From: an uncultured Verrucomicrobiales bacterium
Lineage (GTDB): Bacteria; Verrucomicrobiota; Verrucomicrobiia; Verrucomicrobiales; Akkermansiaceae
Length of the DNA stretch: 64,000 nucleotides
Direction: 5' to 3'
NCBI GenBank assembly: GCA_937934595.1
Contig: CALGZA010000036.1
Span: 7,637 to 71,636 of the forward strand
Shown: one piece after another, positions 6,417 to 63,327 of the stretch
Numbering within the stretch: the stretch's first letter is position 1
Layout of the letters: the number at the start of each line of letters is the position of its first letter
Program-made: the position numbers and the translations under genes
Notes under the pieces: generated by a model
Database searches by the model: none
What the model was told of the DNA's origin: nothing
What the model saw: only the letters and a program-made list of their open reading frames with translations

Positions 6417-6418
6417 AC

Positions 6419-7255: not shown

Positions 7256-7257
7256 AC

Positions 7258-9756: not shown

Positions 9757-9791
9757 TACAAATTAAAGTAAAATACTATAATAAATAAGCA

Positions 9792-11696: not shown

Positions 11697-11744
11697 TTAT
11701 ATATATGGTTCCTACCCGTCTTACGCAGGTAATTGATCCAATAT

Positions 11745-11895: not shown

Positions 11896-12182
11896 AAAAT
11901 CACTCATTACAAGTAACTTCGTCCCGCACGTAGTAGTCAGAAAATCAACAATAGCAAGAAATGATTCTATCTAATGAAACAAACATCCCATGCAGTAATA
12001 CCAAAAAAACAAACAAAAGAATCATTTCTCTCTATCTCAAAAACATAATAAAAAAATGACACATGATGCATCACTAAAGAACATCGCAGCTAGAATGAAA
12101 CAGCCCCTAAAATACCCCAAAATGCACTTAAACCCCGAGAGCACATGCCACAAATACCAGCAAAGCCTCTAACATAAACTTA

Positions 12183-38497: not shown

Positions 38498-38600
38498 TAT
38501 TTCACTAAAATTAATTGATTCCTATTACCTCGCACCACTCTAACCCATCTCTCCAATAGAAAAGGCTCTAACTGCCTAACTAAAGAAAAATGCTAAAATC

Positions 38601-38840
38601 CTAATTCACGATACCTCCTATGCATAACCGCGGATAACTTTGCAAATTCACCAGTATACCCAGCTGCTTTACTGATGCCTGCAAATAATTGAGAGCCTTA
38701 GACACAAACGCTACATCTTGATCCACAAGATCCAGCTCCAGACATTCCTGGTAACCATTCTCAAGAAATCCTGCGCCCTTCTCATTATAAACAGCACCTC
38801 TCAGCGCATAAGTTTCATCCTTAAAATATAAATCCTTCAT
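38601..38840 (-). pseudogene. Internally deleted GxxExxY (PD-(D/E)xK-like) gene
   Basis: GAVYNEKGAGFLENGYQECLEL (GxxExxY) is joined in frame to LNYLQASVKQLGILVN; the family's central segment is absent (79 aa versus about 125). Confidence 0.75.
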
Positions 38841-38964
38841 TTCATCATACAGACCACCACTATAAAAGCATCATGCTGGTTCCGTTACTTCAGTATCTTC
38901 CGTAGTTAAAACATCGTCCTGCCGGGCTTCAACATCCACCCAGCAGAACAACATCACCAGCAAT

Positions 38965-41064: not shown

Positions 41065-41767
41065 TAGTTGTTATTAAGTTTTCAGTTTCTTCTTTTCCAG
41101 ACTCTCGATAAATCTCATTGAGTTTATCCGTATGACTTGCCGTAAGAGATCTAACAATGTAGCGCTGTGATGACTCCTCGTATTTCACTACTAACACGTC
41201 ATCCCCCTTCTCCAAAGCCTCACCACCCTCGCTCAACTTACAGTTAAGCAGAGCCGGAGCATTTTTATCCCTTGGTATTTCTACCTGTCCATACCTATGG
41301 TCAATCACCTGGCTCTTCACTTTCCCCACCTGTCCTATCAAGGGGGCAGCTTGCTCCACGTCATTCTTAAGTGAATTGAAAAATGGAGCTATGGGCTTCG
41401 TCGTATATTTCGTCAAAATAACACTTAAGACAAAATTACCCCCAAAAAGCACCAACGCCAACCACTCAATCTCCTCCGGATTCAAAACATGGTTAGTCAA
41501 CATAGCAATCGCCCACATATAAATATTAATGAGTGTCAACACCAGCATCAGCGGAACTTCAGTTGCATTTACAAAGCTCAATACAGAACTAAAAAATCCA
41601 AACCCCACTCCATCAGCATTCACATCAGTATCCAAATCGATATCAACATCAGTGTCAAAATCCATAATACCAATACTGCTGACTAACCAGTATACAAAAA
41701 AGATGATCAACCCTATTGTTAAAGGTAGATTATAAGTCTGCGTTGCTTGTTCCCATATTTCTCTCAC
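41048..41767 (-). CDS. YqiJ/DUF1449-like (NfeD-type OB-fold) membrane protein
   Basis: TM helices with VPLMLVL, then LIGQVGKV...GQVEI OB-fold; overlaps the flotillin start. Confidence 0.8.
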   Translation of the reverse strand: MREIWEQATQTYNLPLTIGLIIFFVYWLVSSIGIMDFDTDVDIDLDTDVNADGVGFGFFSSVLSFVNATEVPLMLVLTLINIYMWAIAMLTNHVLNPEEIEWLALVLFGGNFVLSVILTKYTTKPIAPFFNSLKNDVEQAAPLIGQVGKVKSQVIDHRYGQVEIPRDKNAPALLNCKLSEGGEALEKGDDVLVVKYEESSQRYIVRSLTASHTDKLNEIYRESGKEETENLITTNEQYE

Positions 41768-48828: not shown

Positions 48829-49899
48829 CTACCTCTGATAAATAGGAATGTAACGGTGAGGTGTCGCTAAAATAATAATAGCCATCGGCGTACTGTGCAC
48901 CCCTCCATGTCTGCCTGCTATCCACGCCCCGTTCTCCTTCTGCTTACTGATGAGTGCATCCCGTATCACAGGATACCACTCCATATAATAATCATCACCC
49001 GCCTGCACCATAGCCTGAATCGCATAATAATGGGCATAGTAATAATGACCAGAACCACCAGTAATCACCGCAGGAAATTGCTTCTTCATGTAACGTAGCC
49101 CAGATGCAACCATTTCTGAATCTCTAAGCCCCGCAAGCTGAGCAGAGTATATTCCTCCCGCAGAACACGCAAAAGACGAGTTCCCACTACCTCTAGAAGT
49201 ATAAGTAAAACCACCATCTTGCTTATTCTGAGCCCTCTTCAGAAACTTCCCCACTTTAGTAATAGTACGCTGAGGGACCATTATCCCTGCCTGACGTGCA
49301 GAAGCTAACGCATGAAAAACAGTCTGAGTACATGAAGTATCTTCACCTCCATCAGACTGCGGCTGGTACCTCCACCCACCACCTCTGTTCTGAGAACGTA
49401 CTATCACATCCACCGCTTTCTCTAAAACCTTTTGTATAGCGTCATCATCCTTCGCATCGCGAGTCATGCCCCATATCTCAGATAAAGCAAGTGTCGCCAA
49501 ACCATGTTCATACATAGTTGTCCCTAAGTAGCCATCAGTGCGAGCTTTTGCATACTTAAGTAAAAAATCTTTAGCCCGGTCTAGCTCCTTACCATATGTA
49601 CCAGAACCAGGAAAATGAGCCTTTGACATATAAGCCATCATAGCCAGCGAGGTAATGCCTATCTCCCTGCCACCCTGACCATCTTCATCCCAGGAGCCAT
49701 CTTTTTTCTGAGTCGTAAGCAGATACTTCAGACCCTTATCAATAGCCTGAGACGCCTTCGCTGTCAGCTCTGGAGCATCAACACCACTCACCTTGGTTTG
49801 AGCATTTAATGGCAAAGCCAACACGCCAGACACAGTGAACAATGTCACTAATCTGCCACACAAGGCACGAAAAATTTGAGTATTTTTTAATGTCATCAT
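48829..49899 (-). CDS. Prenyltransferase/squalene-oxidase-repeat (alpha/alpha barrel) protein
   Basis: QW-like repeats QKKDGSW, SQNRGGGWRY, AQNKQDGGFTY, KQKENGAW; MYEHGLATLAL, YYYAHYY. Confidence 0.88.
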   Translation of the reverse strand: MMTLKNTQIFRALCGRLVTLFTVSGVLALPLNAQTKVSGVDAPELTAKASQAIDKGLKYLLTTQKKDGSWDEDGQGGREIGITSLAMMAYMSKAHFPGSGTYGKELDRAKDFLLKYAKARTDGYLGTTMYEHGLATLALSEIWGMTRDAKDDDAIQKVLEKAVDVIVRSQNRGGGWRYQPQSDGGEDTSCTQTVFHALASARQAGIMVPQRTITKVGKFLKRAQNKQDGGFTYTSRGSGNSSFACSAGGIYSAQLAGLRDSEMVASGLRYMKKQFPAVITGGSGHYYYAHYYAIQAMVQAGDDYYMEWYPVIRDALISKQKENGAWIAGRHGGVHSTPMAIIILATPHRYIPIYQR

Positions 49900-52800
49900 T
49901 GAGCTAGTTTTTCATAGTAGTCTTTAAGCACTGCCCTATATTCTAAAGGCAACTCACGGGCAAAATTTTCATTAAGCGCTGCCCGGTCTCGCTTCCCTAA
50001 CACCTCCCACTCTTGACGCCCACTCTTAGGCTTACTACCACGCACAGCACCCGGCATAAACATATTCATACTGTCCGTTAGCGACTCCACAGGATCGGTG
50101 TTAGCTGGATCTGTTGGCCCAGGAGGCCCAGGTGGAACCAAAAACTCACTGATAAAAGCAATTAAAGTATACCTCGTGTGCGCACCCGCAGAATGCTGAG
50201 CATTAACAGCCGCTTTAGCTTCTCCCGCATCAAGCTGTTCTACAGATTGAACCGCCAGTCTTTTAGCTTCTGTAAGATGCTTCTCGTATGTTTCCAAGAA
50301 CTTCACCAGCCTATCATGCTTAATCAAAGCTCCCCCCGCCTCAGGAACATTCGCTCCCGCCTGCCCTCCCAATTGCTTCTCAGCCTCGCCTTGAATACGC
50401 GTCAGAACAAAAGCTCGGGATCGATTAATCAACGAGTCATAACGTGCTGTAAATTTACTCTGAGCATCAGTAAACTTCTTATCAAGTTTGCCATTCGCTG
50501 CTTGAATCTTTCTTACAAGCACCTTCTGATCTGTAGCTAGTGATAACATCTCCAAGACCAACTTGTTCTCAGGTAAAACAACAGGAACCAAAGGCGGCTT
50601 AAGAACGTTCGATAGTAATTCCATAAGCAGTATCATTTTCTCTCCCTCAGCCATAAGTTGAGCATCAGCCATTTCCATCGCTTGAATCGCAGCACTTCTA
50701 TCTCCAGCCTTTAACTTGCTTTTAGCTACCGCCATATGCTCAGAACCAACGGCGTAGATATTCTCACCAGTCACCTCAAAAAGCTTCTCCCCATAGGATC
50801 GCGCTCGCTCCTCAAGCTTTTTCTGTGCGTCTATAAACGCTACTAATGCTTCCTCTTCTTTTGCACCCGCTACCAGATTTTTAATCTTATCCTGCTCCAT
50901 TCTAATAAGACCAGACTCTAAAGAAATCTGTTGATAAAAATCCACCAACTCAAGTATGTAACTATACCGAGGCGTCACCTTATCTAACTCTTTAGACAGA
51001 CCACCTAGCGTTTCTGCTACAAATGAACCCGCGTCCACAGCCTCTTCTATATCATTTTCTTCAATCGCCTCAGCTGCTGCATCCATATCATCCTTCGCAA
51101 AAAGAAAAACAGTCCCAGATTCTATCTGATGCGCTAGTGGATCGAGCGAGGCTAACACTGCATTCACCGCATGTATTAGATTTTTTTGCACAATAGCCAG
51201 TTTAGGCAATGCCGCCGGCTTTACCTTTTCTAACTGCTTAACCATATCTAACTGCTCAGCCTTTATATCTCCCACAAACGGAGCCGGCATCAATGCTGCC
51301 TCAGTATCGCCTAGCGTGATAAACAATGCACTATTTTGTAATAACTGACTCTCTAACAACTTACTCGCCTTATCAAGCGCATCAACAGCCGTTCCCTGAT
51401 GCTCTACCGCTACATCGATATCCTTACCTTTGAGAGCCACTGTCGCATTTTTCATAGCTAGCTCAATCTGCTCAATAAAGTTTAACAAGGGAGGAATTCC
51501 TTTGCATGGACTGATCTGATCCTTATCCCACTTAACCACTCTTAGCTTAAATTTACCAAAGTCATGAGCCAACTTCTCTTGAAGACGAGCAAAATTAAGC
51601 GCCTCACTGTCTTCCTCAGCATCTTCTGTCTTCTCAAGCAAGTTAATCTGGCGTTCCTCAAATTCAATGATCTCAGTCGCATGCTTGGAAATACCACCGT
51701 TAACTCCAGACATGATTGACCTCTCCGTTACCTGTTCTATCCGACTATGGATCACCTGAACCAAAGCACTGAATGATTCTTCTACTAATTTCTGCTCTCT
51801 AGCAGCATGACTACGCTCCCCTTTCTGAATAAAACCAACAGCTTGTTTCATAGCTCCCTCAGCCGCTGATAATAACTTTTCCACAGGAGGCCTTTTAGGC
51901 AATTCTCTATCCAGAACTGTCGGCCGAAAACTAGGAATATCCGGCATCAACAACAAATGCATCTTCTTCTGAAGAGCCGCTTGAGCAAGAGCCATCTCAC
52001 CACGTCGCTGCTGAAACTGCTCATCAGAAATAGAAGCACATGCCTCCCGTATTTTCTTCTGCTCTATGACTTGATCAGTAAGTAATGCCCCAGCCTTTGT
52101 GAGTGCATCATGCTCAGCTCCTATGCGTAACCGAAACTCAGCGTATAATATTGACTCTATAATCTCGGCTTGAAGTAATCTCGCCTTCGCTAAAGAAGCC
52201 TCTCCTGATTCACGTATCAATGCCCCTGCTTGCCTCATCTTATCTTCTACTCCCCCTTGTCTTAAACCTTTCACTAGCCGTGACAAATTAAAGGCCACCA
52301 ACGCATCGCTTATAGAACTCTCCTTATCCTCAGGAAGCGCATTAAATAACCTACTCACCCACTGACCTAACTGCTCTTGATGCTTGGCTAAATTCTCCTT
52401 ACCCGCAGTTGTCGCATCCTCTAACAATATGGTTTTCGACCTCAAAGGAGCCTGATTTTCCGCTATCGCATGTATTTCACGAGCCATCACTTCAGTCGCT
52501 TCTCTAAAGCCCATTTGTAAAACCAAAGTACTCAGCTCACGGGCAACATTATCAATAGCACGTACCGCCTTATCTAAATCAGGCCGTGACACATGACTTT
52601 TATCCTGAGCTAAAGCCCCCAAGTCCCGCAAACTGTCAGCCGCCATTACTAACTGCTTATCAGAAATACGCTGCATTTCTGCACTCAGACTTACCAAAAG
52701 ATCCGTTATCGATTTATCTTTAATCTCATTGGCCGCTAAATCATCCATCAAACTCTGAATACCCTGCTTAAGAACTCCTAATCTCTCCCTAAACAAATCC

Positions 52801-54497
52801 TGCCTCACTGCTTCTATCTGGCACGCCTGAACAAATTCTCCAGCACCAGGGTCTAACTGACTCACAGTTACGTGCACCTTCCGCTCTTCACGGTAAATAG
52901 CTCTTAACTTATTAAGCAATCTGCGCTTCTGCTTGTTAATTTGTTTCAAATAATCTTTTTTAGATAAAAATGTAATACTCCTAGATTGAGACCTGCTCCT
53001 GTGCGGGCCATCAGCACCAGGATAAGAATCAGCTAGCTCTACCACAAAAGAAACTGTATCGCCTATCGCCAAATCAGGTAATGCTTTCCGATAGTCCCAT
53101 GCCACTTTCTCCAGACCACCATCACTGCCTCCCTGCACCTCAAAAGGCACCTTCTGCTCCTCTATCTTATTCACCCGGTACGCCACATGTGATGAACCTA
53201 TCCCATGATCATCACGCCCACGAAAAGCTATATCAAGCTTTCTGCCCAATGTCGCATAAAGATTACTCTTAGGTGATGCCAGCTCCACTCGGGGCGCTTG
53301 ATCCGGTGCTACCTGTAAGTAATGGTTTGAGCTCACAAATGAAAATCCATGACCCTTCTCCTCCCATGAAAAACTATATCCGCGAGATTCCTTGGCAGAC
53401 TGACTCATCGTAACACGCATTCCATCATCACTAATCTCAAGCGGCTTAGCTTCTCCACCTGCTGGACTGTATAAAGCCTTCTTTACCGCCTTATCTAAAT
53501 CTAGCTGCCACTCAATAATGGTTCCCTCCGGCACAGTCATAGTCAGTGAATCCAGTGTTTCCTCTGCGCGCTTCATATAATCAGGATATTTAAGCAGCAC
53601 TCTAGCCTTCTTAATGCGCGGCGAAGTTACTACTTCCACTTCCAACCATTCACTCTTTGCATCTCCCGCCAGTATCCGGTATTCAAAACCACGATAGGCC
53701 GCTTTTATCGTATAATCACACTTCCCATCCACTATCTCTAAATGATGAACTCTAGGCTCCCCCTTACCCGTGCGTAATTCAAGCTTGGCTGAGCTAGGAA
53801 CCTCACCAGATACCATAGCACTTATCACAGCAGGTGACCCCTCCTTCACCACCATCACTTCATGAGACAACTCGAGCTGAGTATCAGTAGGATATGAAAT
53901 AGACTTCCAAGGCGGTAAAATACGAGCAATACCAGCAGAAACCAATGACCCATTAAACGCACTAAACAAAATCGCAGATAACACGATGACTAACGCAATA
54001 ATCACCGGGCGCTGAAGACCACTGTAACCAACAACCTTCTCCGGCCTCACATCCGCAACCGCCTCTTCTGCCTTCCGGCAAGTGGCTTCTTGTAAAGACT
54101 TTGATGTGCCAGGCGCTAATTTAGATTCTCTAAACTGAACGGCAGTAACCAATATACTCTCAAAATCTCCATGATGATCTTCAATCTGCTTCGCCGCCCG
54201 CTCAGAATTAAATGCACAAACCCTTCCCCATCCAGCCATCCAAGCCTGATAAAATGAAACCCCTACTATAACCAATAACAGCATGACACGCAACAATGTC
54301 GGCAAATCAATCAGCCAATCAGCAAGTAATCCACCAGCAAAAAGCAATAGCCCCCACTGGAGAAATACTAATAGACCTGCTGAGAGATGTAACTTCTGGC
54401 TGCGGAGCCAAACGTTCCTCAAATGTGTATCAAGATTTTCTAGTTGCTTATCTTCGCTCTGGTTCATGATAAATCGTATCTTCTTCGTGTGATCCAC
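49896..54497 (-). CDS. Large membrane-anchored coiled-coil protein (DUF4175-like)
   Basis: N-terminal TMs, Ig-like region (PDQAPRV, GRDDHGI), long helical repeats, C-terminal WEVLGKRDR...PLEYRAVLKDYYEKLA. Confidence 0.75.
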   Translation of the reverse strand: MDHTKKIRFIMNQSEDKQLENLDTHLRNVWLRSQKLHLSAGLLVFLQWGLLLFAGGLLADWLIDLPTLLRVMLLLVIVGVSFYQAWMAGWGRVCAFNSERAAKQIEDHHGDFESILVTAVQFRESKLAPGTSKSLQEATCRKAEEAVADVRPEKVVGYSGLQRPVIIALVIVLSAILFSAFNGSLVSAGIARILPPWKSISYPTDTQLELSHEVMVVKEGSPAVISAMVSGEVPSSAKLELRTGKGEPRVHHLEIVDGKCDYTIKAAYRGFEYRILAGDAKSEWLEVEVVTSPRIKKARVLLKYPDYMKRAEETLDSLTMTVPEGTIIEWQLDLDKAVKKALYSPAGGEAKPLEISDDGMRVTMSQSAKESRGYSFSWEEKGHGFSFVSSNHYLQVAPDQAPRVELASPKSNLYATLGRKLDIAFRGRDDHGIGSSHVAYRVNKIEEQKVPFEVQGGSDGGLEKVAWDYRKALPDLAIGDTVSFVVELADSYPGADGPHRSRSQSRSITFLSKKDYLKQINKQKRRLLNKLRAIYREERKVHVTVSQLDPGAGEFVQACQIEAVRQDLFRERLGVLKQGIQSLMDDLAANEIKDKSITDLLVSLSAEMQRISDKQLVMAADSLRDLGALAQDKSHVSRPDLDKAVRAIDNVARELSTLVLQMGFREATEVMAREIHAIAENQAPLRSKTILLEDATTAGKENLAKHQEQLGQWVSRLFNALPEDKESSISDALVAFNLSRLVKGLRQGGVEDKMRQAGALIRESGEASLAKARLLQAEIIESILYAEFRLRIGAEHDALTKAGALLTDQVIEQKKIREACASISDEQFQQRRGEMALAQAALQKKMHLLLMPDIPSFRPTVLDRELPKRPPVEKLLSAAEGAMKQAVGFIQKGERSHAAREQKLVEESFSALVQVIHSRIEQVTERSIMSGVNGGISKHATEIIEFEERQINLLEKTEDAEEDSEALNFARLQEKLAHDFGKFKLRVVKWDKDQISPCKGIPPLLNFIEQIELAMKNATVALKGKDIDVAVEHQGTAVDALDKASKLLESQLLQNSALFITLGDTEAALMPAPFVGDIKAEQLDMVKQLEKVKPAALPKLAIVQKNLIHAVNAVLASLDPLAHQIESGTVFLFAKDDMDAAAEAIEENDIEEAVDAGSFVAETLGGLSKELDKVTPRYSYILELVDFYQQISLESGLIRMEQDKIKNLVAGAKEEEALVAFIDAQKKLEERARSYGEKLFEVTGENIYAVGSEHMAVAKSKLKAGDRSAAIQAMEMADAQLMAEGEKMILLMELLSNVLKPPLVPVVLPENKLVLEMLSLATDQKVLVRKIQAANGKLDKKFTDAQSKFTARYDSLINRSRAFVLTRIQGEAEKQLGGQAGANVPEAGGALIKHDRLVKFLETYEKHLTEAKRLAVQSVEQLDAGEAKAAVNAQHSAGAHTRYTLIAFISEFLVPPGPPGPTDPANTDPVESLTDSMNMFMPGAVRGSKPKSGRQEWEVLGKRDRAALNENFARELPLEYRAVLKDYYEKLAQ

Positions 54498-56851
54498 TCA
54501 AAGCCCATAAGGACTACAAGTAGTAATATTACCCACCCGTTATCCCACAGCGAGCGGTCTTTACGGATGGAAGTAGTGTGTTGTGTGCGGTTGAGTAGCG
54601 ATGGAAGCTCACTGAGGCGGGACACAGTCAAATACTCTCCCCCTGAAAGAGCTGCCATTTTCTGTAGCCGTTCGCTTTGCATGCTCGTACTTGCCATCTC
54701 AGAATTAACGTCTGCAACCTGAAATTCAGTAATATTCGCAAGCTCAGAATCTGATGAACTAGCCTCCATCCTATAACGCCCAGGACTCCGAGGCGTATAA
54801 TACCCCTCATACAGCCCAGGATTCGTAATATCTGGTCGTAGTGTCACTCGCTGAGATGGCCCATCGTTACCGTCTTGTTTCGTTATTTGTACTTCAAACC
54901 CATTTTGATTCACCGGATCATATGCATCGTCTAACACATGAGCATACAGCTGAACCTGCTTACCACTCTGATAAATAGACTGATCCGTTTCTAACCGTAT
55001 CCTCTTATGCTCGCCCATAAGTCGTGACAGAGTCAAAAATTGAATCGCCTGTGACCAAGCTCGCCAATGATACTTATCTCCAGTCTTAAATCGTAATAAC
55101 CACAAACGGTCAGTTCCCATAACCATACATTTCCCAGTACCATAACGGTGCCACGCTACAAGCGGATATCGCCCTGAACGAGACAACGAATCAGAAAGTT
55201 CCGCCAATATAGTAGCACCCGGCTTAGCCGATAGCAATGGCGGCACACGATCAAGTGGAGCAACGCGTGTCCATACCCTATCATTTTTCTCACGCTCATG
55301 CTCTAAAGTCATCACAAGACTGCTTCGCCCCTCAGGAGTCAAAACAGGATGCACACTCTCATCCACCTCTTCCCACTTGCCCTTGGCATCAAAGTGAACA
55401 GGTAACATTTTCTCAACAGGCGTCCCAGCGTAGCTAGTAGGTGAATAACGTGAACCACATAACATTAACAAAGACCCTCCTCGCTCTCTCACCAGCTCCT
55501 CTAGCCTAGAAAACTCATCCGCATTAAAAAAAGTTGCATCCACATCACCAAGAATAACAAGATCATACTTAAATGCCTCATCTCGCTTACTTGGAAAACG
55601 TGCTATATACTCAGATGAACTCTGAGCCATCTCAGCCTTTGCCCGGGTCGCTATAAATGTAGCATTAATGCGTGGATCCCGCTTTAACATAGCCCGTAGA
55701 TAACGAAATTCCCAACGCGCACTCCCCTCCATACACAACACATTGATCTTTTCATTCACCACCCGCACACTGCGTTCAGTTCGGTTATTCGCAGCTGTCG
55801 CTTCATCATCAAACGGATCAATCACCACCTCAATGCGCGCCGCCCCTTTTTCACGTACATCAACATTAAAGAAAAGATCTTCAAACTGCAGTCCACCTTT
55901 TAAAGATATACTCCGTGTCGCTACAGAACGCCCATTCAATAATACTGAAATATCTGCAACCCGCTTCTCATATCCTCTAGACTGAATCTGAATCCGCACA
56001 GGAACCTTATCACCTGCAAAGGCCACCTCTTGAACGATAACATTACGGATAGAAACATCATCAGGATCACTTATACCCATAGGCACAGGAAAAACAGGTA
56101 TCCCATACCTTCCTAAATCATTCAGTGCCTCATCAGCACTACGCGCTGAAGTATCCAAACCATCACTAAGAAGCACTACCCCAGACAAAGGCGCTCCTCG
56201 GTCAATAGTCGAGATCCCTTTAAGCGCTTGAGTTATACCAGTACCAGAATCCTCTGCTTTCAGACCTGCTATAGCTTCCTTCGACCCCTCATGACCATCA
56301 CTAAGCATCCGCAGCGAATCCCCAAAAGCGTAATAGCTAATATCCAGATCCCCACTCAGTTCAGTCAACATATCATGAGCCGCTGTTGATAAAAGACTCT
56401 TGCTCAGATCCAATCGTGATGATGACGAAACAAGCTGTAGCTGATTCGTATTCAGTGCCATACCTGATAAACCCCCATCACTTTCTCCCGCTAACGGCAA
56501 CATACCTAGTGCTCTAGCTGATTCCGACTGATCTTCAGGCTTCTTGCGCTGATCCCTAATAGACATACTCTTAGACACATCTACTAAAACCGCCAGACGC
56601 CTTTTGCTACTCTGTGTCTCTTTTACTACAGCCGTTGGCTCAAATAATAAAATCAAAACCAGACTCAACACCACAAACCGGCAAACCCCCAGCGTTATCC
56701 TAATCTTAAGCGGCAAGCCCTGCCTGCGGATATAAAGATAAACAGTCAATGCCAAAATAGCCAAAATAGCCAACACCATAACCCATGTGGAAACCGGTCG
56801 GCCCCAGATGAATTCCTCTATTTGAGTATTATTTGATAACCAACTAATCAT
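54464..56851 (-). CDS. Membrane protein with vWA and glutamine-amidotransferase-like domains
   Basis: LVDVSKSM (MIDAS), LLSDG, RWEFRYLR, YDLVILGD, GGSLLML, C-terminal LWD...EWITRRR. Confidence 0.85.
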   Translation of the reverse strand: MISWLSNNTQIEEFIWGRPVSTWVMVLAILAILALTVYLYIRRQGLPLKIRITLGVCRFVVLSLVLILLFEPTAVVKETQSSKRRLAVLVDVSKSMSIRDQRKKPEDQSESARALGMLPLAGESDGGLSGMALNTNQLQLVSSSSRLDLSKSLLSTAAHDMLTELSGDLDISYYAFGDSLRMLSDGHEGSKEAIAGLKAEDSGTGITQALKGISTIDRGAPLSGVVLLSDGLDTSARSADEALNDLGRYGIPVFPVPMGISDPDDVSIRNVIVQEVAFAGDKVPVRIQIQSRGYEKRVADISVLLNGRSVATRSISLKGGLQFEDLFFNVDVREKGAARIEVVIDPFDDEATAANNRTERSVRVVNEKINVLCMEGSARWEFRYLRAMLKRDPRINATFIATRAKAEMAQSSSEYIARFPSKRDEAFKYDLVILGDVDATFFNADEFSRLEELVRERGGSLLMLCGSRYSPTSYAGTPVEKMLPVHFDAKGKWEEVDESVHPVLTPEGRSSLVMTLEHEREKNDRVWTRVAPLDRVPPLLSAKPGATILAELSDSLSRSGRYPLVAWHRYGTGKCMVMGTDRLWLLRFKTGDKYHWRAWSQAIQFLTLSRLMGEHKRIRLETDQSIYQSGKQVQLYAHVLDDAYDPVNQNGFEVQITKQDGNDGPSQRVTLRPDITNPGLYEGYYTPRSPGRYRMEASSSDSELANITEFQVADVNSEMASTSMQSERLQKMAALSGGEYLTVSRLSELPSLLNRTQHTTSIRKDRSLWDNGWVILLLVVLMGFEWITRRRYDLS

Positions 56852-59079
56852 GATGAATGTTCTAATTCCTGCTCCCCTTCTGTTGCAGATTTATGGGTTG
56901 AAGGCTTACCTTTGCCCTCTGAATTTAAATGAGGCGCGCGATGCGACGTAAAATGTGCAATCACACTCTCTATGATAAGAAATACAAAACAAGCTATCAT
57001 CAAAGAACGCCAGAATGATAAACCAGTCCGTGCTTGCTTTATCGTATCCACTAATGCTGAGTCAGAACTTGCCACCACAATATTACCTTCACTAAACTTT
57101 CTCAACAAAGCATCAGCACTCACACACTGAACATCAGATTCACGGCTATCTATATTCACCGCAATAGGCATACTCGGCGCCTGCACACTCACCCTTGCTA
57201 AGTAAAAACCCGCCTCATTAGCACGGTCAAGTAAGGCTATATACTGGTTACGATGCTCCTTAACTGGAACCGTGATAGTCTCACCCTTAGGTGTTTCAAA
57301 CACCGCATCACTCGAGTCAGGCTGGTCAACATAGGATAATGATAATGAACTACCCACCACCCTCGGCTTCTCAAATTCCCTCGCCGTCAAATACGTAACC
57401 ATCTGCTGGATTAACATAGGAAAAACCGGTGTCAGTGCCATATTATTCCATGTTGGCTCAGCTGAAGATGTAAACATAAATACCTGACCACGTCCAATAG
57501 ACTGCTCTATCAGCAAGGGTTTAGAACTACCCTCCAATGCCAACACAATAGAACTCTCCGCCGTAGGCTTCACATTAAGAACCTTCAGAAATTGTGTCTC
57601 ACTCAGCAAGTCCTCTGATAGAGACCTTAAAGGCCTACATACAGAATGATCAGAAATAGCAGAAGCTAATGGCTGCCCCACTCCTGAATCATTACCCACA
57701 GACTCCACATCCTCTAATAACGCCGGCAACAACCGAACACTACCTAGCGCAGATTGCTTATTCCAAATCGTAGGCTTGGTTTGATCACCCGGAAACCATA
57801 CCAATCCATTGCCCGAACGCACATAAGCCTCCAGCTGCTTAGACTGACCAGGCGTGATAGCCGGAACATTCGCCAAAATCACCACATCGTATCGAGCCAA
57901 ATCCTGATTGGGTAGTGAAACCCAAGGCACAGACTTTACTTTGAAGTCCTCCTGGCTAGCTCCATTATCACGTGCACTTAACGCCGCCGAAATAAATCCA
58001 CTAAACCCAACAGAAGATGACGAAGAACCCTCAACACATAAAATAGAGACCCGCTCTCGTACCACAGCTACTGCATAACACTCATTATCCAGCAACAGCG
58101 CATCATCATCAAGCTTCGCTGTAATCTGAACTGCCCCAGCATTGCGAAACGGTATAAATAAGGAAACCGTCTCTGACGCCCCAGCTGCTATGGATGGAAT
58201 AGACTTCGTATCCATATTGATGCCATTAACTCCACCTCGCACCATGACATTACTCACCGGAACATTCCCATAGTTCTTAACAGTAGCTTGATAACGAGCA
58301 GTCGTCCCCTTCCTTAACACTCCAGATACAAGCTCTAATTGAGTAATCGCAAGATTGTCAGACGCCCCAGAAACAGGAACTATCACCAAACTAGCATCCC
58401 TACTCAGCCCCTCCAATGCCTTCTCTATCTGCCCATCTCGCCCACTCCAGTCATGCTCCTGAACATCAGTGATAAGATGAACCTCCCTCTGCGCTACATC
58501 TAATCCATTCAACACCTCACGCAATAAACCAGCTGCACTATCCAAGTTAAGCGGCTCATCAGTCACCTCCAAACCATCTAATATCCCATGAAACCGATCG
58601 CGATCATACGCCATATCGCGAACTACAACACTATGCTCACCACTCAGCATAACCAAAGAAACCGTATCTCCAGGCTGTGCACTCTTCGTGATAAGCTTCG
58701 CCTTCTTGATAGCTCGCTCAAATCGTGTCGAAGAGCCATCACTATGCTGCATACTATATGATGCATCTATAGCTATAACCATGCCAGTCAATGGTTCACC
58801 AAACTTACTAGCCACACCACCCCTAGATCCATCACCTGATCGCTCTAAAATCGGTTTAGAAATAGCAAAAACCAAAAACAAAACAGCCGCACATCGAAGT
58901 ATCAATAACAACAAATCGCGTAACTTAATCTGCCGCGAACGCACATTCACCGCACGGTTAAGAAACTGCATCGCAGCCCAAGTCGTATGCTTATACTGAT
59001 GCTTATTCAGCAGATGAGCCAGAATCGGTAACGCGATTCCTACAGCCCCAATCAAAAGTAGTGGATTTAAAAAATTCAT
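56848..59079 (-). CDS. BatA-domain / vWA protein
   Basis: MNFLNPLLL...PILAHLLN...WAAMQFL...LLLILRC (BatA N-terminus); IDASYSM MIDAS; LITD. Confidence 0.9.
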   Translation of the reverse strand: MNFLNPLLLIGAVGIALPILAHLLNKHQYKHTTWAAMQFLNRAVNVRSRQIKLRDLLLLILRCAAVLFLVFAISKPILERSGDGSRGGVASKFGEPLTGMVIAIDASYSMQHSDGSSTRFERAIKKAKLITKSAQPGDTVSLVMLSGEHSVVVRDMAYDRDRFHGILDGLEVTDEPLNLDSAAGLLREVLNGLDVAQREVHLITDVQEHDWSGRDGQIEKALEGLSRDASLVIVPVSGASDNLAITQLELVSGVLRKGTTARYQATVKNYGNVPVSNVMVRGGVNGINMDTKSIPSIAAGASETVSLFIPFRNAGAVQITAKLDDDALLLDNECYAVAVVRERVSILCVEGSSSSSVGFSGFISAALSARDNGASQEDFKVKSVPWVSLPNQDLARYDVVILANVPAITPGQSKQLEAYVRSGNGLVWFPGDQTKPTIWNKQSALGSVRLLPALLEDVESVGNDSGVGQPLASAISDHSVCRPLRSLSEDLLSETQFLKVLNVKPTAESSIVLALEGSSKPLLIEQSIGRGQVFMFTSSAEPTWNNMALTPVFPMLIQQMVTYLTAREFEKPRVVGSSLSLSYVDQPDSSDAVFETPKGETITVPVKEHRNQYIALLDRANEAGFYLARVSVQAPSMPIAVNIDSRESDVQCVSADALLRKFSEGNIVVASSDSALVDTIKQARTGLSFWRSLMIACFVFLIIESVIAHFTSHRAPHLNSEGKGKPSTHKSATEGEQELEHSS

Positions 59080-60005
59080 TAGCGTGCTCCTACTGATGGC
59101 CCCATCATATTTAATGCCCGGTTCTCTACATACTTACTCAGTAAACCATCCAAAGGACTTGATGTATCTACCAAAGTATAATCAACACCACTCCCTATAC
59201 AACCAGTCTTTAGCTCCTCAAGATAAGCAGTCAGATTCTCCATATATTCTTTCCGTATTTTTTCAGGTTGCGTTATAAGCTCTTCATCCGCCTCAAGCGC
59301 ATCAAATTTCCAAGTCCCCTTAAACGGAAATTCAAGCTCATAAGGATCCAGCGTATGGAATACTATCACAGTATGCCCAGCATATCTAAGCCGCTGGAGC
59401 CCTTTCATAATGTCACCAACATCAGAAAATAAATCCGATATCAGTATCACAAAAGAACGCCGCTTTATCTGAACCGCTATATCATTTAACTGCTTCGCTA
59501 TACTCGTCTTCGGAGTCGGCTCTATCTCCTTTAAAATCTTCTCTATCTGTAATATAATACTCATCGCAGATCGCGGAGGAAGATGAGCTCGCATCTCAGA
59601 ATCAAACACACTCAAACCTACAGAATCCCTCTGATTAAGCACCAAGTAGCTCAATGCAGCTGCCAAAAACTTAGAATACTCTAACTTACTAACAGCACCA
59701 GATCCATACGTCATCGAAGAACTCGCATCCATCAAAATATGACAGTCAAAGTTAGTCTCAGCCTCATACAACTTCGTGTAATACCGCTCAGTCCTTCCAA
59801 ACACTCGCCAGTCCAAATCCCGTATCGGATCCCCAGGAACATACTGACGGTGATGCGCAAACTCCGTACTAAAACCCTTCAGTGGACTACGGTGAGATCC
59901 AGCTCGCTGACCCTCCACTATCTCACGAGCCACCAGCTCTAAATCACCTAGCTTCTGTAAAAGCTCCGGCTTCAAATAATCTAAGTTTGGTAAATGCTGA
60001 GACAT
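59079..60005 (-). CDS. DUF58 protein
   Basis: GSHRSPLKGFSTEFAHHRQYVPGD, LDWRVFGRT, ILMDASSSM, ILISD. Confidence 0.95.
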   Translation of the reverse strand: MSQHLPNLDYLKPELLQKLGDLELVAREIVEGQRAGSHRSPLKGFSTEFAHHRQYVPGDPIRDLDWRVFGRTERYYTKLYEAETNFDCHILMDASSSMTYGSGAVSKLEYSKFLAAALSYLVLNQRDSVGLSVFDSEMRAHLPPRSAMSIILQIEKILKEIEPTPKTSIAKQLNDIAVQIKRRSFVILISDLFSDVGDIMKGLQRLRYAGHTVIVFHTLDPYELEFPFKGTWKFDALEADEELITQPEKIRKEYMENLTAYLEELKTGCIGSGVDYTLVDTSSPLDGLLSKYVENRALNMMGPSVGAR

Positions 60006-60023
60006 AATAGATGTAAGTAACCG

Positions 60024-61031
60024 CTATTTTTTCTCTCCAGTCGGAGTCTCCTTGATCAGCCTCTCGACTAAACTATCTGCCGTCATCCCCTCAGACCTAG
60101 CCGCAAAGTTAGGTATAACTCGGTGCCGGAGAATAGGCACCGCCACCGCCTGTATATCCTCAATAGCCACATGACATCTACCCCTCAAAGCCGCCCTAGA
60201 CTTACCAGCAAGTATCAAATTAAGCGATGCCCGCGGACCAGCACCCCATGACATATACTCTTTTACCCATTCCGGTGCATCCTCCTCATTCGGACGCGTA
60301 GATCTTATCAGTGACGCAGCATACTCAAATATATGATCCGCCACCGGTATACGGCGAACTAACTCCTGAAACTTCTGAATCGCCTCACCATCTAAAACCT
60401 TCTCTATCTTAGGCTGATGATCACTCGTCACACTCTTCATGATGCCAAGCTCCTCCTCGCGGTTAGGATACTTTACCACCACATTGAAAAGAAAACGATC
60501 GAGCTGTGCTTCAGGTAAAGGATAAGTACCCTCCTGCTCAATAGGGTTCTGCGTAGCCAATACAAAAAACGGCTTGTCTAATTTATACTCTACTCCTCCA
60601 GACGAAACCCTCTTCTCCTGCATAGCCTCCAGCAAAGCTGCCTGCGTCTTTGGCGGTGTACGGTTAATCTCATCAGCAAGTAATAAATTCGTAAATACCG
60701 GCCCCTCCATAAACTTAAACTTACGGGCATGTGTCTCAGGATCTTCCTGCAAAATCTCAGTCCCTGTGATGTCAGACGGCATCAGATCCGGAGTAAACTG
60801 AATGCGCTTGAAAGATAACGAAAGCGCCTCCGCAAGAGAACTCACTAATAGAGTCTTAGCCAAACCCGGCACACCCACCAGCAAACAGTGCCCTTGAGCA
60901 AATACAGCAATCATCATCTCATCGATAACATCTTCCATACCCACTATCACTTTACGTAGCTCTTTAACTACACCATCTCTTGCCTCTCCCAGCTCCTCTA
61001 CTAACTTTACGTCATCCGTTGTTTTACTCAT
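60024..61031 (-). CDS. MoxR-family AAA+ ATPase
   Basis: GVPGLAKT, RIQFTPDLMPSD, LADEINRTPPKTQAALLEAMQE, ATQNPIEQEGTYPLPEAQLDRF. Confidence 0.97.
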   Translation of the reverse strand: MSKTTDDVKLVEELGEARDGVVKELRKVIVGMEDVIDEMMIAVFAQGHCLLVGVPGLAKTLLVSSLAEALSLSFKRIQFTPDLMPSDITGTEILQEDPETHARKFKFMEGPVFTNLLLADEINRTPPKTQAALLEAMQEKRVSSGGVEYKLDKPFFVLATQNPIEQEGTYPLPEAQLDRFLFNVVVKYPNREEELGIMKSVTSDHQPKIEKVLDGEAIQKFQELVRRIPVADHIFEYAASLIRSTRPNEEDAPEWVKEYMSWGAGPRASLNLILAGKSRAALRGRCHVAIEDIQAVAVPILRHRVIPNFAARSEGMTADSLVERLIKETPTGEKK

Positions 61032-61238: not shown

Positions 61239-61441
61239 TTATAACAACTGAGCCTTAGCAGGATGCATAGAAAACCACAATAGCGGAGGAGGCAAAACAG
61301 ATGAAAGGCACACAGTGAGCTAAACAACTAATGACCAACGAAGCTAATTTCCTATATTGCTCTTCAAAAAATCAGCTCTGCTGCTGTTCCCAAATGTATT
61401 AAAACTACTATCAACCCAGAATAACTGTGAATATGGTATTA
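61239..61441 (+). mobile_element. MITE-like copy 5 (left half degenerate, right half near consensus)
   Basis: ttataacaactgagcc...aacgaagctaat...gtgaatatggtatta; abuts copy 6. Confidence 0.75.
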
Positions 61442-61649
61442 TACCATTTGAGCCGTTAGAATGGATTGATAGCACAACAAGATAGCAAGAGTAGCAAGGC
61501 AAGAGGAAAGCGCATAGTGGACTATGCAACTGACGATTAACGAAGCTAATCTTGATAGATTGTTGTGCACTTCAAAAAATCAGCTCTGCTGCTGTTCCCA
61601 AATGTATTAAAACTACTATCAGCCCAGAATAACTGTGAAAATGGTATAA
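61439..61649 (+). mobile_element. MITE-like repeat, copy 6 (211 bp)
   Basis: ttataccatttgagcc...gtgaaaatggtataa; shares TTA with the end of copy 5. Confidence 0.9.
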
Positions 61650-61802
61650 AACCCTATCAAGGTACAGCGAAAGAATCATGCACCCATCATCACGATCCAG
61701 AAAAACAAATTCTCACCACATCTCACCAAGCAGCACACAAAACCATCCCAATCACGCTAGAACGCTACTCAGAAAACCACCACTCCTCACCCCCCACCAC
61801 TC

Positions 61803-62411
61803 CTAATACTCCACACCTTTCTGCGCCATCACCCCATCCTTAAAAGGATGAGCCAGCTCCTTCATCTCAGTAGCAAGATCAGCTATCTCTAGCAACTCAG
61901 GCAAAGCATTCCTTCCCGTAAGAACCACATGAGTCATAAACGGTTTCTCATCTAACAAAAAACGCACCACTTTCTGAATATCCAGATAATCATAACGCAA
62001 AGCTATATTGATCTCATCCAATAAAACCATCCTATTCCCACTATCTCGGATAAGCTCTTTAGCCTTTTCCCACGCCTCCTCAGCCTTTTCAATGTCTCTA
62101 TCCCTATCCTGAGTCTCCCATGTAAAACCCTCACCCATCGTGAAAAAAGGACACTCCTCCGCAAAATGCTCAGTAATAAACTTCCTCTCCCCAGACTCTA
62201 TAGCACCCTTGATAAACTGCACCACCGCACACGGCATACCCCACGCAATATGCCGCATGATCATCCCAAAAGCAGAACTACTCTTACCCTTACCATCTCC
62301 CGTATGAACAATGATTAAACCCTTCTCTTCCGTTTTAGATTCCATCAACTTGTCGCGCCCCTTCTTCAGCCGCGCCATCCGCCTATTATGCTTCTCACTC
62401 TTCTCGTTCAT
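61803..62411 (-). CDS. cobO: Cob(I)alamin adenosyltransferase (CobO/BtuR)
   Basis: VHTGDGKGKSSSAFG, VQFIKG, GEGFTW, LLDEIN, VLTGR, HPFKDGVMAQKGVEY. Confidence 0.96.
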   Translation of the reverse strand: MNEKSEKHNRRMARLKKGRDKLMESKTEEKGLIIVHTGDGKGKSSSAFGMIMRHIAWGMPCAVVQFIKGAIESGERKFITEHFAEECPFFTMGEGFTWETQDRDRDIEKAEEAWEKAKELIRDSGNRMVLLDEINIALRYDYLDIQKVVRFLLDEKPFMTHVVLTGRNALPELLEIADLATEMKELAHPFKDGVMAQKGVEY

Positions 62412-62527
62412 CCTATATACCCACTCACCTATTAAACCAGAGCATCTGTAAAAATGCTAAAACCTCACTAGCCACAACCTCGACCACTCAACCAGTAACC
62501 AAGACAAACTAACAACCACCAACAAAA

Positions 62528-62764
62528 CTAATCTCCCCCAACTGGAGGACAAGCCTTCGTTCCTCATCCAGGCCCCACTCCCTCAGACTGCTCGCCAACT
62601 GGCGAGCTAGATCCAAACAGTCAAGAAGACACCCCCATCTTAGGCATCGCCCACTGAATCACTACATAAACCAACAACCCAAGACCCAGCCACAACAACG
62701 TCCTAGACCTAGACGGCTGGCTAGCCTCCACATTCTCACTCTTTACTTCATCTTCTTCACTCAT
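62528..62764 (-). CDS. Candidate 78 aa single-TM selenoprotein with two Sec (47 aa if the first UGA is a stop, 66 aa if only the first is read through)
   Basis: MSEEDEVKSENVEASQPSRSRTLLWLGLGLLVYVVIQWAMPKMGVSS-U-LFGSSSPVGEQSEGVGPG-U-GTKACPPVGGD-TAG. In-frame TGA at 62623-62621 and 62566-62564, each followed by a SECIS-like hairpin. Confidence 0.65.
62534..62549 (-). promoter_or_regulatory. Candidate SECIS hairpin 2
   Basis: UCCUCC-AGUU-GGGGGA; 20 nt separate the UGA at 62566-62564 from the first loop base. Confidence 0.55.
62590..62607 (-). promoter_or_regulatory. Candidate SECIS hairpin 1
   Basis: GCUCGCC-AGUU-GGCGAGC perfect 7 bp stem; 20 nt separate the UGA at 62623-62621 from the first loop base; no U-tract, so not a terminator. 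Confidence 0.6.
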
Positions 62765-62817
62765 AACCGTAAGAGCACCATCAATGCCTAATTATTCCCA
62801 AATAAATAAATCACACC

Positions 62818-63327
62818 CTAAAACGGTATATCATCATCCTCATCCGCAAAATCAGGCATATTACTAGCTGGGGATCCACCCTGTGGCTGCGTCTGCTGTG
62901 GCGCAGCCTGCGGCTGCGGCGGAGAACCCTGCATCGGAGGATGTTGCTGCTGCCCACCTCCTCCTTGATTACCACCACTTGGAGCACCACCTGGAGCACC
63001 ACCTATAAACTGCATATTCTCACCCACTATCTTCAACTTAGAGCGCTGCTTTCCTGTCTCCTTATCAGTCCAGCTATCCGTCTGCAGCCTCCCCTCTATA
63101 AATACCTGACGCCCCTTGCCTAAATACTGATTCGCTAACTCAGCCTGTCGCCCCCACAGCGTAACATCCGCAAAGGTCACATCCTCTATCTTCTGCCCAT
63201 CCTCACCAGTACGGAAACGATTAGAAGCCACTGTCATATCAGCTACAGCTGTCCCCTTAGGGGTATACCGAAGCTCAATATCACGTGTAACATTACCCAT
63301 GATCATTACTTTGTTGAAATTTGCCAT
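62818..63327 (-). CDS. ssb: Single-stranded DNA-binding protein
   Basis: NKVMIMGNVTRDIELRYTP, GRQVFIEGRLQTDSW, G/Q/P-rich linker, DDDIPF tail. Confidence 0.98.
   Translation of the reverse strand: MANFNKVMIMGNVTRDIELRYTPKGTAVADMTVASNRFRTGEDGQKIEDVTFADVTLWGRQAELANQYLGKGRQVFIEGRLQTDSWTDKETGKQRSKLKIVGENMQFIGGAPGGAPSGGNQGGGGQQQHPPMQGSPPQPQAAPQQTQPQGGSPASNMPDFADEDDDIPF

Follow-up and report, generated by a model that had tools for sequence, protein, structure and literature searches.

Anatomy of the locus

In the 64-kb stretch of DNA analysed here (the window), the minus strand from 62764 to 62528 reads as an ATG-initiated frame of 47 codons, a TGA, 18 codons, a second TGA, 11 codons and a TAG, and its translation is MSEEDEVKSENVEASQPSRSRTLLWLGLGLLVYVVIQWAMPKMGVSS*LFGSSSPVGEQSEGVGPG*GTKACPPVGGD* (Table 1). 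This micro-ORF begins 53 nt after the ssb stop codon, and cobO, which lies outside the element, is its downstream neighbour in the window genome only. The ORF list gives only the piece of 47 residues, which bears out the original prediction that the complete frame was missing from the ORF track owing to the UGA at codon 48. That piece is a genuine coding region. Its hydrophobic helix precedes a conserved juxtamembrane motif, PK(M/V)GV(S/A)(S/T)-U. An opposite-strand gene was rejected, given that no plus-strand ORF of at least 30 aa occurs across 62452-62882, and a genome-wide reassignment of UGA was also rejected because TGA, which ends 10 of 49 long ORFs, is an ordinary stop in the window genome.

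Table 1. Features of the micro-ORF locus, in window coordinates
Feature	Position	Strand	Description
ssb	62818..63327	-	Upstream neighbour; Pfam SSB
Full read-through micro-ORF	62528..62764	-	78 sense codons + TAG; in-frame TGA at codons 48 and 67
47-aa piece (protein P0001)	62621..62764	-	Sole product in the ORF list and in public annotation
Single hydrophobic helix	62645..62698	-	Codons 23-40, LLWLGLGLLVYVVIQWAM
UGA-1	62623-62621	-	Codon 48, proposed Sec
Minihelix 1 (hairpin 1), SECIS-like	62607-62590	-	GCTCGCC-AGTT-GGCGAGC, 7-bp stem
UGA-2	62566-62564	-	Codon 67, proposed Sec; conserved context (P/S)T-U-G
Cys-72 codon	62549..62551	-	TGT; makes U-x4-C with proposed Sec-67
Minihelix 2 (hairpin 2), SECIS-like	62549-62534	-	TCCTCC-AGTT-GGGGGA, 6-bp stem, one G-U pair
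U-rich tail 3' of hairpin 2	62519..62533	-	GAUUAGUUUUGUUGG; basis: terminator scan
Terminal stop	62530-62528	-	TAG
cobO, corrinoid adenosyltransferase	61803..62411	-	Downstream; Pfam CobA_CobO_BtuR, E = 4.6e-60

Each TGA is followed by a hairpin whose AGUU loop begins 20 nt past it, at 62600-62597 for hairpin 1 and at 62543-62540 for hairpin 2, so that the two in-frame UGAs with equally spaced hairpins described in the original prediction were confirmed by translation and by the hairpin positions. The RNA of hairpin 1 encodes SSPVGE and that of hairpin 2 encodes CPPVGG, the RNA apex CC-AGUU-GG giving rise to the repeated peptide P-V-G as a by-product. The claim that neither hairpin has a U-tract held for hairpin 1 but not for hairpin 2, behind which the T-rich tail GATTAGTTTTGTTGG was scored as terminator-like in the window by the terminator scan. 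This tail is not kept in relatives, and hairpin 2 may double as the operon terminator in the window genome.

Regarding chance expectation, CCAGTTGG is not rare by itself, with two occurrences in the window against 1.5 expected, and the loose SECIS consensus, which allows a spacing of 16-37 nt, is satisfied by 59 of the 2806 TGAs of the window (about 2%), so that a loose match alone proves nothing. The strict pattern, consisting of a TGA, exactly 20 nt and a stem of 6 bp or more capped by an NG[GU]N tetraloop, was found at three of the 2806 TGA trinucleotides, two of which are the UGA-1 and UGA-2 sites, while a first-order Markov simulation yielded about 1.7 such matches per 1887 TGAs. Therefore, two consecutive in-frame cases are far beyond chance.

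Conservation of the frame and of the in-frame TGAs

When the window sequence alone was used as a protein query, it matched only itself, since its relatives share too few 5-residue words, and an alignment built from genomic loci was used instead. In total, 21 distinct homologues were recovered from assemblies of genomes and metagenomes, most of them marine. For the homologues fetched solely via the N-terminal 46 residues, there is no bias towards conservation downstream. In every N-terminally retrieved homologue, the first stop is TGA, the frame is open past it and an AGUU loop lies 20 nt further on, except in a distant subfamily, where GGGU starts at this point instead.

Across the 21 distinct sequences, the frame is open through one to three in-frame TGAs, and the internal stops are TGA in 48 of 48 cases, never TAA, TAG, TGY or TGG; at UGA-1, TGA was found in 21/21, with no sense codon or other stop. 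Terminal stops, on the other hand, are TAG or TAA, and probably TGA in L053-L056. Beyond the first TGA, the sequences differ in length only by multiples of three, with inter-UGA spacers of 12, 16, 18 or 21 codons, and of 8, 9 or 10 codons, and tails of 10 to 25 codons. Past UGA-1, only the micro-ORF frame is open. The codon immediately following UGA-1 specifies Leu through five synonymous forms (CTG, CTA, TTA, TTG and CTT), and the Pro and Thr codons preceding UGA-2 also vary synonymously (CCC/CCT and ACC/ACT). The synonymous excess amounted to 61 in frame versus 21 and 13 in the other two frames for the 47-aa part, and to 20 in frame versus 9 and 4 out of frame after UGA-1. Per-site entropy at codon positions 1, 2 and 3 was 0.56, 0.22 and 1.21 upstream of UGA-1 and 0.63, 0.41 and 0.77 after it. 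The amino-acid sequence of the tail is only modestly conserved, and the signal by codon position is confounded there by the constraint on the RNA. Altogether, the conservation anticipated past position 47 was observed in 21 sequences as an open frame, multiple-of-three indels, synonymous variation and a constant 20-nt hairpin spacing.

In more distant members, the number of modules varies from one to three. L041-L046 carry three UGAs, L052 presents two T-U-x4-C-x-P-G-D modules with a hairpin for each, and the last module of L047 departs from the pattern; the modular design seen in L052 and L041-L046 was counted in favour of the selenoprotein reading. Most two-UGA members retain Cys-72, as does the distant subfamily (U-x4-C-x-P-G-D), and its position is occupied by Ser in L036 and L041-L045 and by Asn in L046. 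Thus, the predicted composition of two Sec and one Cys agrees with the two UGAs found here, but it does not extend to the family, which spans one to three proposed Sec and in which the Cys after the second is not conserved.

In an alignment of 12 database homologues, the residues T, L, W, Y, I, Q, W, P, K, G and S are invariant. The protein-database homologues are all annotated as 'hypothetical protein', are 42-83 aa long and end at PK(V/M)G(V/L/M)x(S/T), in keeping with the truncated annotations mentioned in the original prediction. No Cys-containing homologue was retrieved by a word-indexed search of 5.8 billion proteins or by an exhaustive HMM search of 1.84 billion representatives. The only longer match, P0017 (71 aa), was considered as a Cys form and rejected, since it results from a TGA miscalled as Trp. 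Consequently, of the Cys/Sec alignment expected at the UGAs, only the alignment of TGA with TGA throughout was obtained, and no Cys form was found.

Hairpins as candidate SECIS elements

The bacterial SECIS consensus comprises an apical loop of 3-9 nt in which one of the first two bases is G and the base after it G or U, an upper stem of 4-16 bp, a distance of 16-37 nt from the UGA and a minimum free energy of at most -7.5 kcal/mol (PMC13188914). Compared constraint by constraint, both window hairpins satisfy it, with an AGUU loop, stems of 7 and 6 bp, a distance of 20 nt and core energies of -12.9 kcal/mol for hairpin 1 and -8.8 kcal/mol for hairpin 2. The placement of the loop is very similar to that of G23/U24, the bases read by E. 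coli SelB, which lie about 2 nt nearer to the UGA.

Across 15 sequences, 92% of the cells of hairpin 1 are paired, and four of its seven pairs show compensatory changes, for example from CGCC/GGCG to CAUC/GAUG, CAUC/GGUG and CACC/GGUG, around an invariant loop, which fits sequence-specific recognition. None of 500 shuffles reached the observed score, and slid controls paired at 31-52%. In the case of hairpin 2, analysed in 16 sequences, the loop and the top 4 bp are invariant or change by wobble only, and the lower three pairs are weak. No consensus-fitting hairpin serves the middle UGA of the three-UGA subfamily, and in many relatives the last UGA is found inside a further covarying hairpin.

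Rfam 15 yielded nothing at the gathering threshold and, with E values up to 10, chance matches only, those in 62450-62800 all having E above 1. When 378 kb of related loci were scanned for other selenoprotein genes, the pattern of a TGA followed after 16-25 nt by a hairpin with an NGUN loop gave, as additional hits, only out-of-frame matches within pth and random sites.

Genomic context and selenocysteine machinery

The order pth-rpsF-ssb-micro-ORF is kept in nearly all lineages, according to the gene tables of L001, L038, L043-L047 and L053-L055, and the downstream genes differ among relatives, including a VTT-ATP-grasp gene, convergent genes and others. The window SSB is 69-81% identical to the SSB of Rubritalea metagenome-assembled genomes, and the family is one of marine Rubritalea-like bacteria. 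No selA, selB, selC or selD was detected in the 64-kb window or in the fetched loci, as assessed by Pfam on about 40 window ORFs and by tRNA scans of the window and 17 loci. The Sec trait, defined by selD, selA and selB orthologues, has been published for Rubritalea marina DSM 17716 (PMC5029168 Table S2), and only three Sec users among Verrucomicrobia were recorded in that survey (PMC5029168).

Comparison with known systems

The arrangement is the same as in the E. coli fdhF paradigm, in which SelB acts with an in-ORF SECIS, in that an in-frame UGA has a stem-loop directly behind it, inside the coding sequence. Selenoprotein P, a eukaryotic multi-Sec protein, depends instead on a SECIS located in the 3'-UTR. 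The small loop with G and then U at positions 2-3 is that of bacterial SECIS elements as defined by the bSECISearch consensus (PMC13188914). However, unlike ordinary SelB/SECIS genes, the micro-ORF concentrates two, and elsewhere up to three, candidate UGA and SECIS modules in about 100 nt, and it represents a family without Cys homologues or a recognisable redox fold and with a predicted membrane anchor, whereas Cys forms occur in almost every selenoprotein family known (PMC13188914).

Among the known families, only a small subset has two or three Sec (PMC13188914). The selenobacteriocin SbtA (TIGR04081, motif SGUG, 2 Sec; PMC13188914 Table 1) is also small, with two predicted Sec each followed by Gly, and likewise stands outside the thioredoxin-fold world, but the micro-ORF differs from it by its N-terminal transmembrane anchor and by its phylum. 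Additionally, neither TIGR04081 nor any other NCBIfam model matched up to E = 10, apart from a lone chance CoaP_CTERM match (E = 0.5), and the neighbours of the micro-ORF are ssb and cobO, with no radical-SAM/SPASM maturase beside it. MbdU, the UxxU metal-binding protein and the rhodanese/DsbD fusion TsoB with UxxxxU (PMC13188914 Table 1) also carry more than one Sec per polypeptide; these are, however, domain proteins with close Sec pairs and Cys homologues, while in the micro-ORF family the proposed Sec would be 9-22 residues apart in a low-complexity tail. No family match was obtained with Pfam and NCBIfam for the 47-aa form or for the 78-aa form with U entered as C, and none of the 119 prokaryotic selenoprotein families inventoried in 2026 resembles it.

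Proposed decoding and alternative explanations

Taken together, the locus probably encodes a member of a new family of multi-Sec micro-selenoproteins that would be decoded by the ordinary SelB/SECIS mechanism. Counted against it are the sel genes missing from the window and the fetched loci, the lack of Cys forms in both protein sets, the modestly conserved tail, the middle UGA of the three-UGA subfamily, the deviating last module of L047 and the terminator-like look of hairpin 2. According to the selenoprotein model, transcription would take place just behind rpsF-ssb, and the ribosome would translate 47 codons that specify an N-terminal acidic part, a single transmembrane helix and PKMGVSS. 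At UGA-48, SelB-GTP-Sec-tRNA(Sec), held by the AGUU-tetraloop minihelix with its loop 20 nt downstream, would insert selenocysteine, and a second insertion would occur 19 codons further on, at UGA-67, through the second minihelix with the same geometry. Translation would then stop at the UAG located 11 codons after UGA-67. The predicted product is a 78-residue (~8 kDa) single-pass membrane protein with a 31-residue Gly/Ser/Pro-rich tail containing Sec-48, Sec-67 and Cys-72.

The simplest alternative is that the gene ends at UGA-48 and encodes a membrane protein of 47 aa, the hairpins being non-coding RNA elements of the rpsF-ssb transcript, for instance a terminator, a site for stability or processing, or one bound by a protein. 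Every annotation pipeline reports this end, nucleotide conservation just past UGA-1 exceeds that of the upstream coding part, which shows RNA-level constraint, and the lack of Cys forms in both protein sets is also in its favour. Moreover, Rho-independent terminators of ribosomal-protein operons also place a GC-rich hairpin past the operon, and in the window hairpin 2, followed by its U-rich tail, is scored as one. Nevertheless, invariance of the loop sequence and of the distance to an in-frame TGA is not required of a terminator, and plain terminators were rejected, since hairpin 1 has no U-tract and no conserved one exists in relatives. An end at UGA-48 also leaves unexplained the multiple-of-three spacing changes, the second and third TGAs always placed in frame and 20 nt before a loop, the five synonymous Leu codons and internal stops that are never TAA or TAG while the terminal ones alternate, so this alternative is considered unlikely.

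Conservation of the frame past the UGAs would equally be expected if the UGAs were read through without selenocysteine, by hairpin-stimulated near-cognate decoding as Trp, Cys or Arg, resulting in an isoform of low abundance with a C-terminal extension. No stop codon is leakier than UGA, and the Sec machinery of the window genome is only putative. However, two or three successive leaky stops would reduce the yield to negligible levels, and none of the 48 UGA positions has drifted to TGG or TGY; such drift would be expected at some of them if an ordinary residue were acceptable. Considering also that both the loop sequence and the spacing of the hairpins agree with the SECIS consensus, and that the genus includes a Sec user, near-cognate read-through is very improbable. 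Even less credit is given to a regulatory leader peptide, in which a ribosome terminating or paused at UGA-1 by hairpin 1 would control downstream structures and the next gene, for instance in RF2 or selenium sensing. Hairpin 1 starts 13 nt past UGA-1, so that a ribosome there would indeed abut it, and the additional covarying hairpin around the last UGA in many relatives also speaks for this reading. But the gene to be controlled is not conserved (cobO, VTT-ATP-grasp, convergent genes or others), the transmembrane helix and juxtamembrane motif are conserved under purifying selection, unlike a leader, and frame conservation past UGA-1 would have no explanation.

Possible function of the proposed selenopeptide

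Assuming selenocysteine insertion, the most likely chemistry would be a selenenylsulfide (U67-C72) or a diselenide (U48-U67) that makes the tail a membrane-tethered redox or chalcogen/metal-binding peptide; a function as a membrane-tethered redox or chalcogen-binding peptide is a guess. A selenolipoprotein, with Sec as the +1 Cys of a lipobox, was also evaluated and rejected. A lipobox, [LVI][ASTVI][GAS]C, directly follows an h-region and a short n-region of positive charge; although V-S-S-U fits formally in the window, V-P-S-U, L-N-S-U and V-A-T-U occur in relatives, the acidic n-region is long, and PK stands between the helix and the motif.

If confirmed, this would be an unusually small bacterial selenoprotein, with 78 residues, and would join the very few that contain two or three Sec. 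It would also constitute a rare family without Cys relatives, which would imply that it cannot function without selenium itself. Such genes escape methods based on Cys/Sec pairs as well as those that exclude very short ORFs, and marine bacterial selenoproteomes may therefore be undercounted. In addition, the tandem UGA and minihelix modules, with their invariant AGUU at 20 nt, offer material for the study of SelB recognition in Verrucomicrobia and of successive Sec insertion.

A gene for a VTT(DedA)-ATP-grasp protein, with which the peptide possibly works, adjoins the micro-ORF in several relatives, and one for a TANGO2-like protein does so in several lineages. A more ambitious interpretation, which is doubtful, holds that an obligate-Sec, membrane-tethered poly-Sec peptide lacking a sulfur counterpart would form, together with the VTT(DedA)-ATP-grasp fusion and the TANGO2-like protein, an undescribed membrane system for the handling of selenium, another chalcogen or a metal, or for peptide modification, and that three-UGA members would decode one Sec codon without a consensus SECIS, the signal being a hairpin whose loop displays the next UGA.

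Micro-ORF and hairpins

It was confirmed that the minus strand of the window carries a 78-codon micro-ORF with two in-frame TGAs (UGA-1, codon 48; UGA-2, codon 67), each followed by a SECIS-like hairpin. The window translation matches exactly the read-through peptide of the original prediction, the ORF lister returns only the first 47 codons, as had been claimed, and both TGAs show the same spacing of 20 nt before an AGTT loop. The octamer CCAGTTGG is by itself unremarkable in the window, with 2 occurrences seen versus 1.5 expected. Of the 2806 window TGAs, 3 have a tetraloop of the form NG[GU]N on a stem of 6 bp or more at exactly 20 nt 3′, and two of these belong to the micro-ORF.

Coordinates of the micro-ORF elements in the window and of the VTT–ATP-grasp fusion gene beside the micro-ORF in relatives
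Feature	Location	Strand	Details
Start ATG	window 62764	minus	then 47 sense codons
TGA-1	window 62623-62621	minus	then 18 codons
Hairpin 1	window 62607-62590	minus	stem GCTCGCC/GGCGAGC, loop AGTT, core -12.9 kcal/mol
TGA-2	window 62566-62564	minus	then 11 codons
Hairpin 2	window 62549-62534	minus	stem TCCTCC/GGGGGA, loop AGTT, core -8.8 kcal/mol
Terminal stop TAG	window 62530-62528	minus	
VTT–ATP-grasp fusion	L035 3274-4974		
VTT–ATP-grasp fusion	L036 3259-4947		
VTT–ATP-grasp fusion	L048 10258-12611		

The published bacterial SECIS consensus comprises a loop of 3-9 nt with G in its first two positions and, as a rule, G or U next, a stem of 4-16 bp, a spacing of 16-37 nt and an MFE <= -7.5 kcal/mol (PMC13188914), and both window hairpins pass all of these constraints. 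However, since about 2% of all window TGAs satisfy a loose proxy of this consensus (4-nt NG[GU]N loop on a stem of 6 bp or more, 16-37 nt beyond the TGA), the weight rests on conservation rather than on the consensus match. Across relatives, 92% of hairpin 1 cells are paired, versus 31-52% in slid controls, compensatory changes occur at 4 of the 7 pairs, and the covariation score was reached by none of 500 shuffles. In hairpin 2, the loop and top four pairs are unchanged or show wobble changes only, conservation of the lower three pairs is poor, and core energies range from -2.3 to -12.8 kcal/mol. The earlier statement that neither hairpin has a U-tract held only in part, as hairpin 2 in the window carries the tail GATTAGTTTTGTTGG, a U-rich stretch not kept in relatives. 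The P-V-G repeat of the peptide arises because the CC-AGUU-GG of the hairpin apex is translated.

Relatives and their stop codons

The window peptide alone retrieved only itself in a protein search. Two loci fetched via SSB (L003 and L004) have a homologue directly 3′ of ssb, with two in-frame TGAs each; the three-sequence alignment led to seven further homologues in marine metagenomes, and an eight-sequence alignment to 13 proteins in the databases, each 44-57 aa long and ending PK(V/M)G(V/L)x S, which bears out the earlier statement that such micro-ORFs are annotated in short, probably truncated form. An exhaustive profile search with the N-terminal 46 positions against 1.84 billion representatives gained a few more homologues and no longer Cys-containing form; none with Cys at the UGA positions turned up.

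The DNA behind the truncated proteins forms a set unbiased as to what comes after the first stop. In every such locus this stop is TGA, the frame stays open past it, and an AGUU loop (AGGU in one case) lies 20 nt beyond; in a distant subfamily, GGGU begins at that distance instead. Altogether, the 21 distinct sequences, in which TGA is aligned and the frame remains open past UGA-1 as the original prediction expected, hold 48 internal stops, all TGA and none changed to TAA, TAG, TGG or TGY, whereas both TAG and TAA occur as terminal stops.

One database protein, P0017 (locus L047), was rejected as a full-length homologue: the public gene call applied a UGA=Trp code to the contig and rendered three TGAs as Trp, which yields a misleading 71 aa. 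This locus (5809-6150) is irregular, with a TAG four codons past the third TGA, the last AGUU hairpin out of frame and CAA at the expected TGA position; gene decay or misassembly of an old metagenome may account for this. L003 (JBLHQF010000206.1) is labelled Cryomorphaceae (Bacteroidota), yet has a Rubritalea-type pth-rpsF-ssb-microORF block, and the contig is probably mis-binned; its VTT–ATP-grasp gene has an internal deletion, leaving only 149 aa.

Probable translation past UGA-1

The comparative evidence supports translation of the region past UGA-1. Length differences among relatives are always multiples of three, with inter-UGA spacers of 12, 16, 18 or 21 codons and of 8, 9 or 10 codons, and tails of 10-25 codons. 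The codon after UGA-1 encodes Leu (CTG, CTA, TTA, TTG or CTT; Met once), and the Pro-Thr preceding the last UGA varies synonymously. The synonymous excess, taken as the number of distinct codons less that of distinct amino acids, is 20 in frame past UGA-1 versus 9 and 4 in the two alternative frames, both of which contain stops; the upstream values are 61 versus 21 and 13. Codon-position entropy is 0.63/0.41/0.77 past UGA-1 versus 0.56/0.22/1.21 upstream, a weaker signal, as is expected where RNA structure overlies a coding sequence.

Modular layout

Two-UGA members, including the window, follow SS-U-LFG...PVG...(P/S)T-U-G-x3-(C/S)-PPVG. The proposed U-x4-C at the second site is present in the window, but the Cys five residues past the last Sec, frequent in the family, is not invariant, since some members have Ser. 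The more divergent L041-L046 have three UGAs (SS-U-LFGTSAPVGxxT-U-GSxxxxxPT-U-xxxxSPPVG), the middle U aligning to a Glu of the two-UGA group. The only conserved structure downstream of this middle UGA is a covarying hairpin (GCUGA...UCAGC, GCCACGC...GCGCGGC and GUUCC...GGAAC, for example) that begins 15-18 nt past the middle UGA, encloses the last UGA in a loop of 12-16 nt and departs from the SECIS consensus. The distant subfamily (L048-L052) ends LPK(V/M)GVAT-U-M-x3-C-x-PGD, and L052 has two U-x4-C-x-PGD modules, each with its own hairpin, in which the loop is CGGGU and one C is bulged.

Predicted product and novelty

The product would cross the membrane once and have a short Gly/Ser/Pro-rich tail bearing two Sec and one Cys, which could form a selenenylsulfide or diselenide. 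At the protein level, conservation in the two subfamilies alike is strongest in the juxtamembrane motif (I/L)Q(W/L)xxPK(V/M)GV(S/A)(S/T)-U, which puts about seven residues between the helix and the first Sec. Topology cues conflict, with the acidic N-tail and the SRxR that precedes the helix pointing in opposite directions. Several relatives have, next after the micro-ORF, a gene for a VTT(DedA)-domain and ATP-grasp fusion protein of 552-566 aa; in L048-L051, a TANGO2-family gene stands between the two. Two lineages in which the micro-ORF occupies different genomic sites share 65% identity in this fusion, which hints at a functional partner; the fusion gene is absent from the window. A membrane-tethered redox or chalcogen/metal-binding role seems the likeliest, with low confidence.

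No Pfam, NCBIfam or Rfam model matched the micro-protein or its region, and a 2026 inventory of 119 prokaryotic selenoprotein families contains none of this sort (PMC13188914). The nearest in kind is the selenobacteriocin peptide (TIGR04081, SGUG), likewise two-Sec; however, the micro-protein has neither a TIGR04081 match nor a radical-SAM neighbour. Independent comparative evidence supports the interpretation as a two-Sec micro-selenoprotein; the decoding mechanism proposed is the ordinary bacterial one, and the novelty lies in the protein family and in its layout of tandem modules.

Organism, Sec trait and genomic context

The gene order on the minus strand is pth, rpsF, ssb, micro-ORF, cobO. 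The window SSB shares 69-81% identity with the SSB of Rubritalea MAGs, indicating a marine Rubritalea-like verrucomicrobium, and the sequencing runs containing the sequence are marine or seawater metagenomes. With 10 of the 49 long ORFs ending in TGA, UGA functions as a normal stop codon in the genome. Nothing relevant to Sec machinery, including tRNA-Sec, was found within the 64-kb window or the fetched loci. When the Sec trait was defined by SelD, SelA and SelB orthologues, Peng et al. (2016) found it in Verrucomicrobia only in Rubritalea marina DSM 17716 and the SAGs SCGC AAA164-E04 and AAA168-F10 (PMC5029168); the trait thus exists in the genus and is only putative for the window genome.

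The window has 44.7% G+C and a very strong strand skew (15.6% G versus 29.1% C on the plus strand), and about two thirds of its long ORFs lie on the minus strand. Directly after the micro-ORF, cobO lies 50 kb from a B12 uptake/salvage cluster (5421-11903, minus) of TonB-dependent receptor, CobQ-like amidotransferase, periplasmic binding protein, ABC ATPase and FecCD permease, downstream of a cobalamin riboswitch (RF00174, 11733-11903). Between cobO and a moxR-like gene, a stretch of about 770 nt is free of genes and contains an 88-nt direct repeat (61358-61445 and 61566-61653; copies 94% identical, 208 nt apart), surrounded by more inverted repeats. At 49896-61031 (minus), two very large ORFs of 1533 and 795 aa, neither matching Pfam, precede a BatA/VWA/DUF58/MoxR "aerotolerance"-type operon. 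Finally, a 1703-aa DUF3686/DUF7902/AAA protein followed by two ORFs with no Pfam match (33386-41767, minus) and an SNF2-family helicase with DUF3670 (22294-25026) may constitute a defence or repair island.
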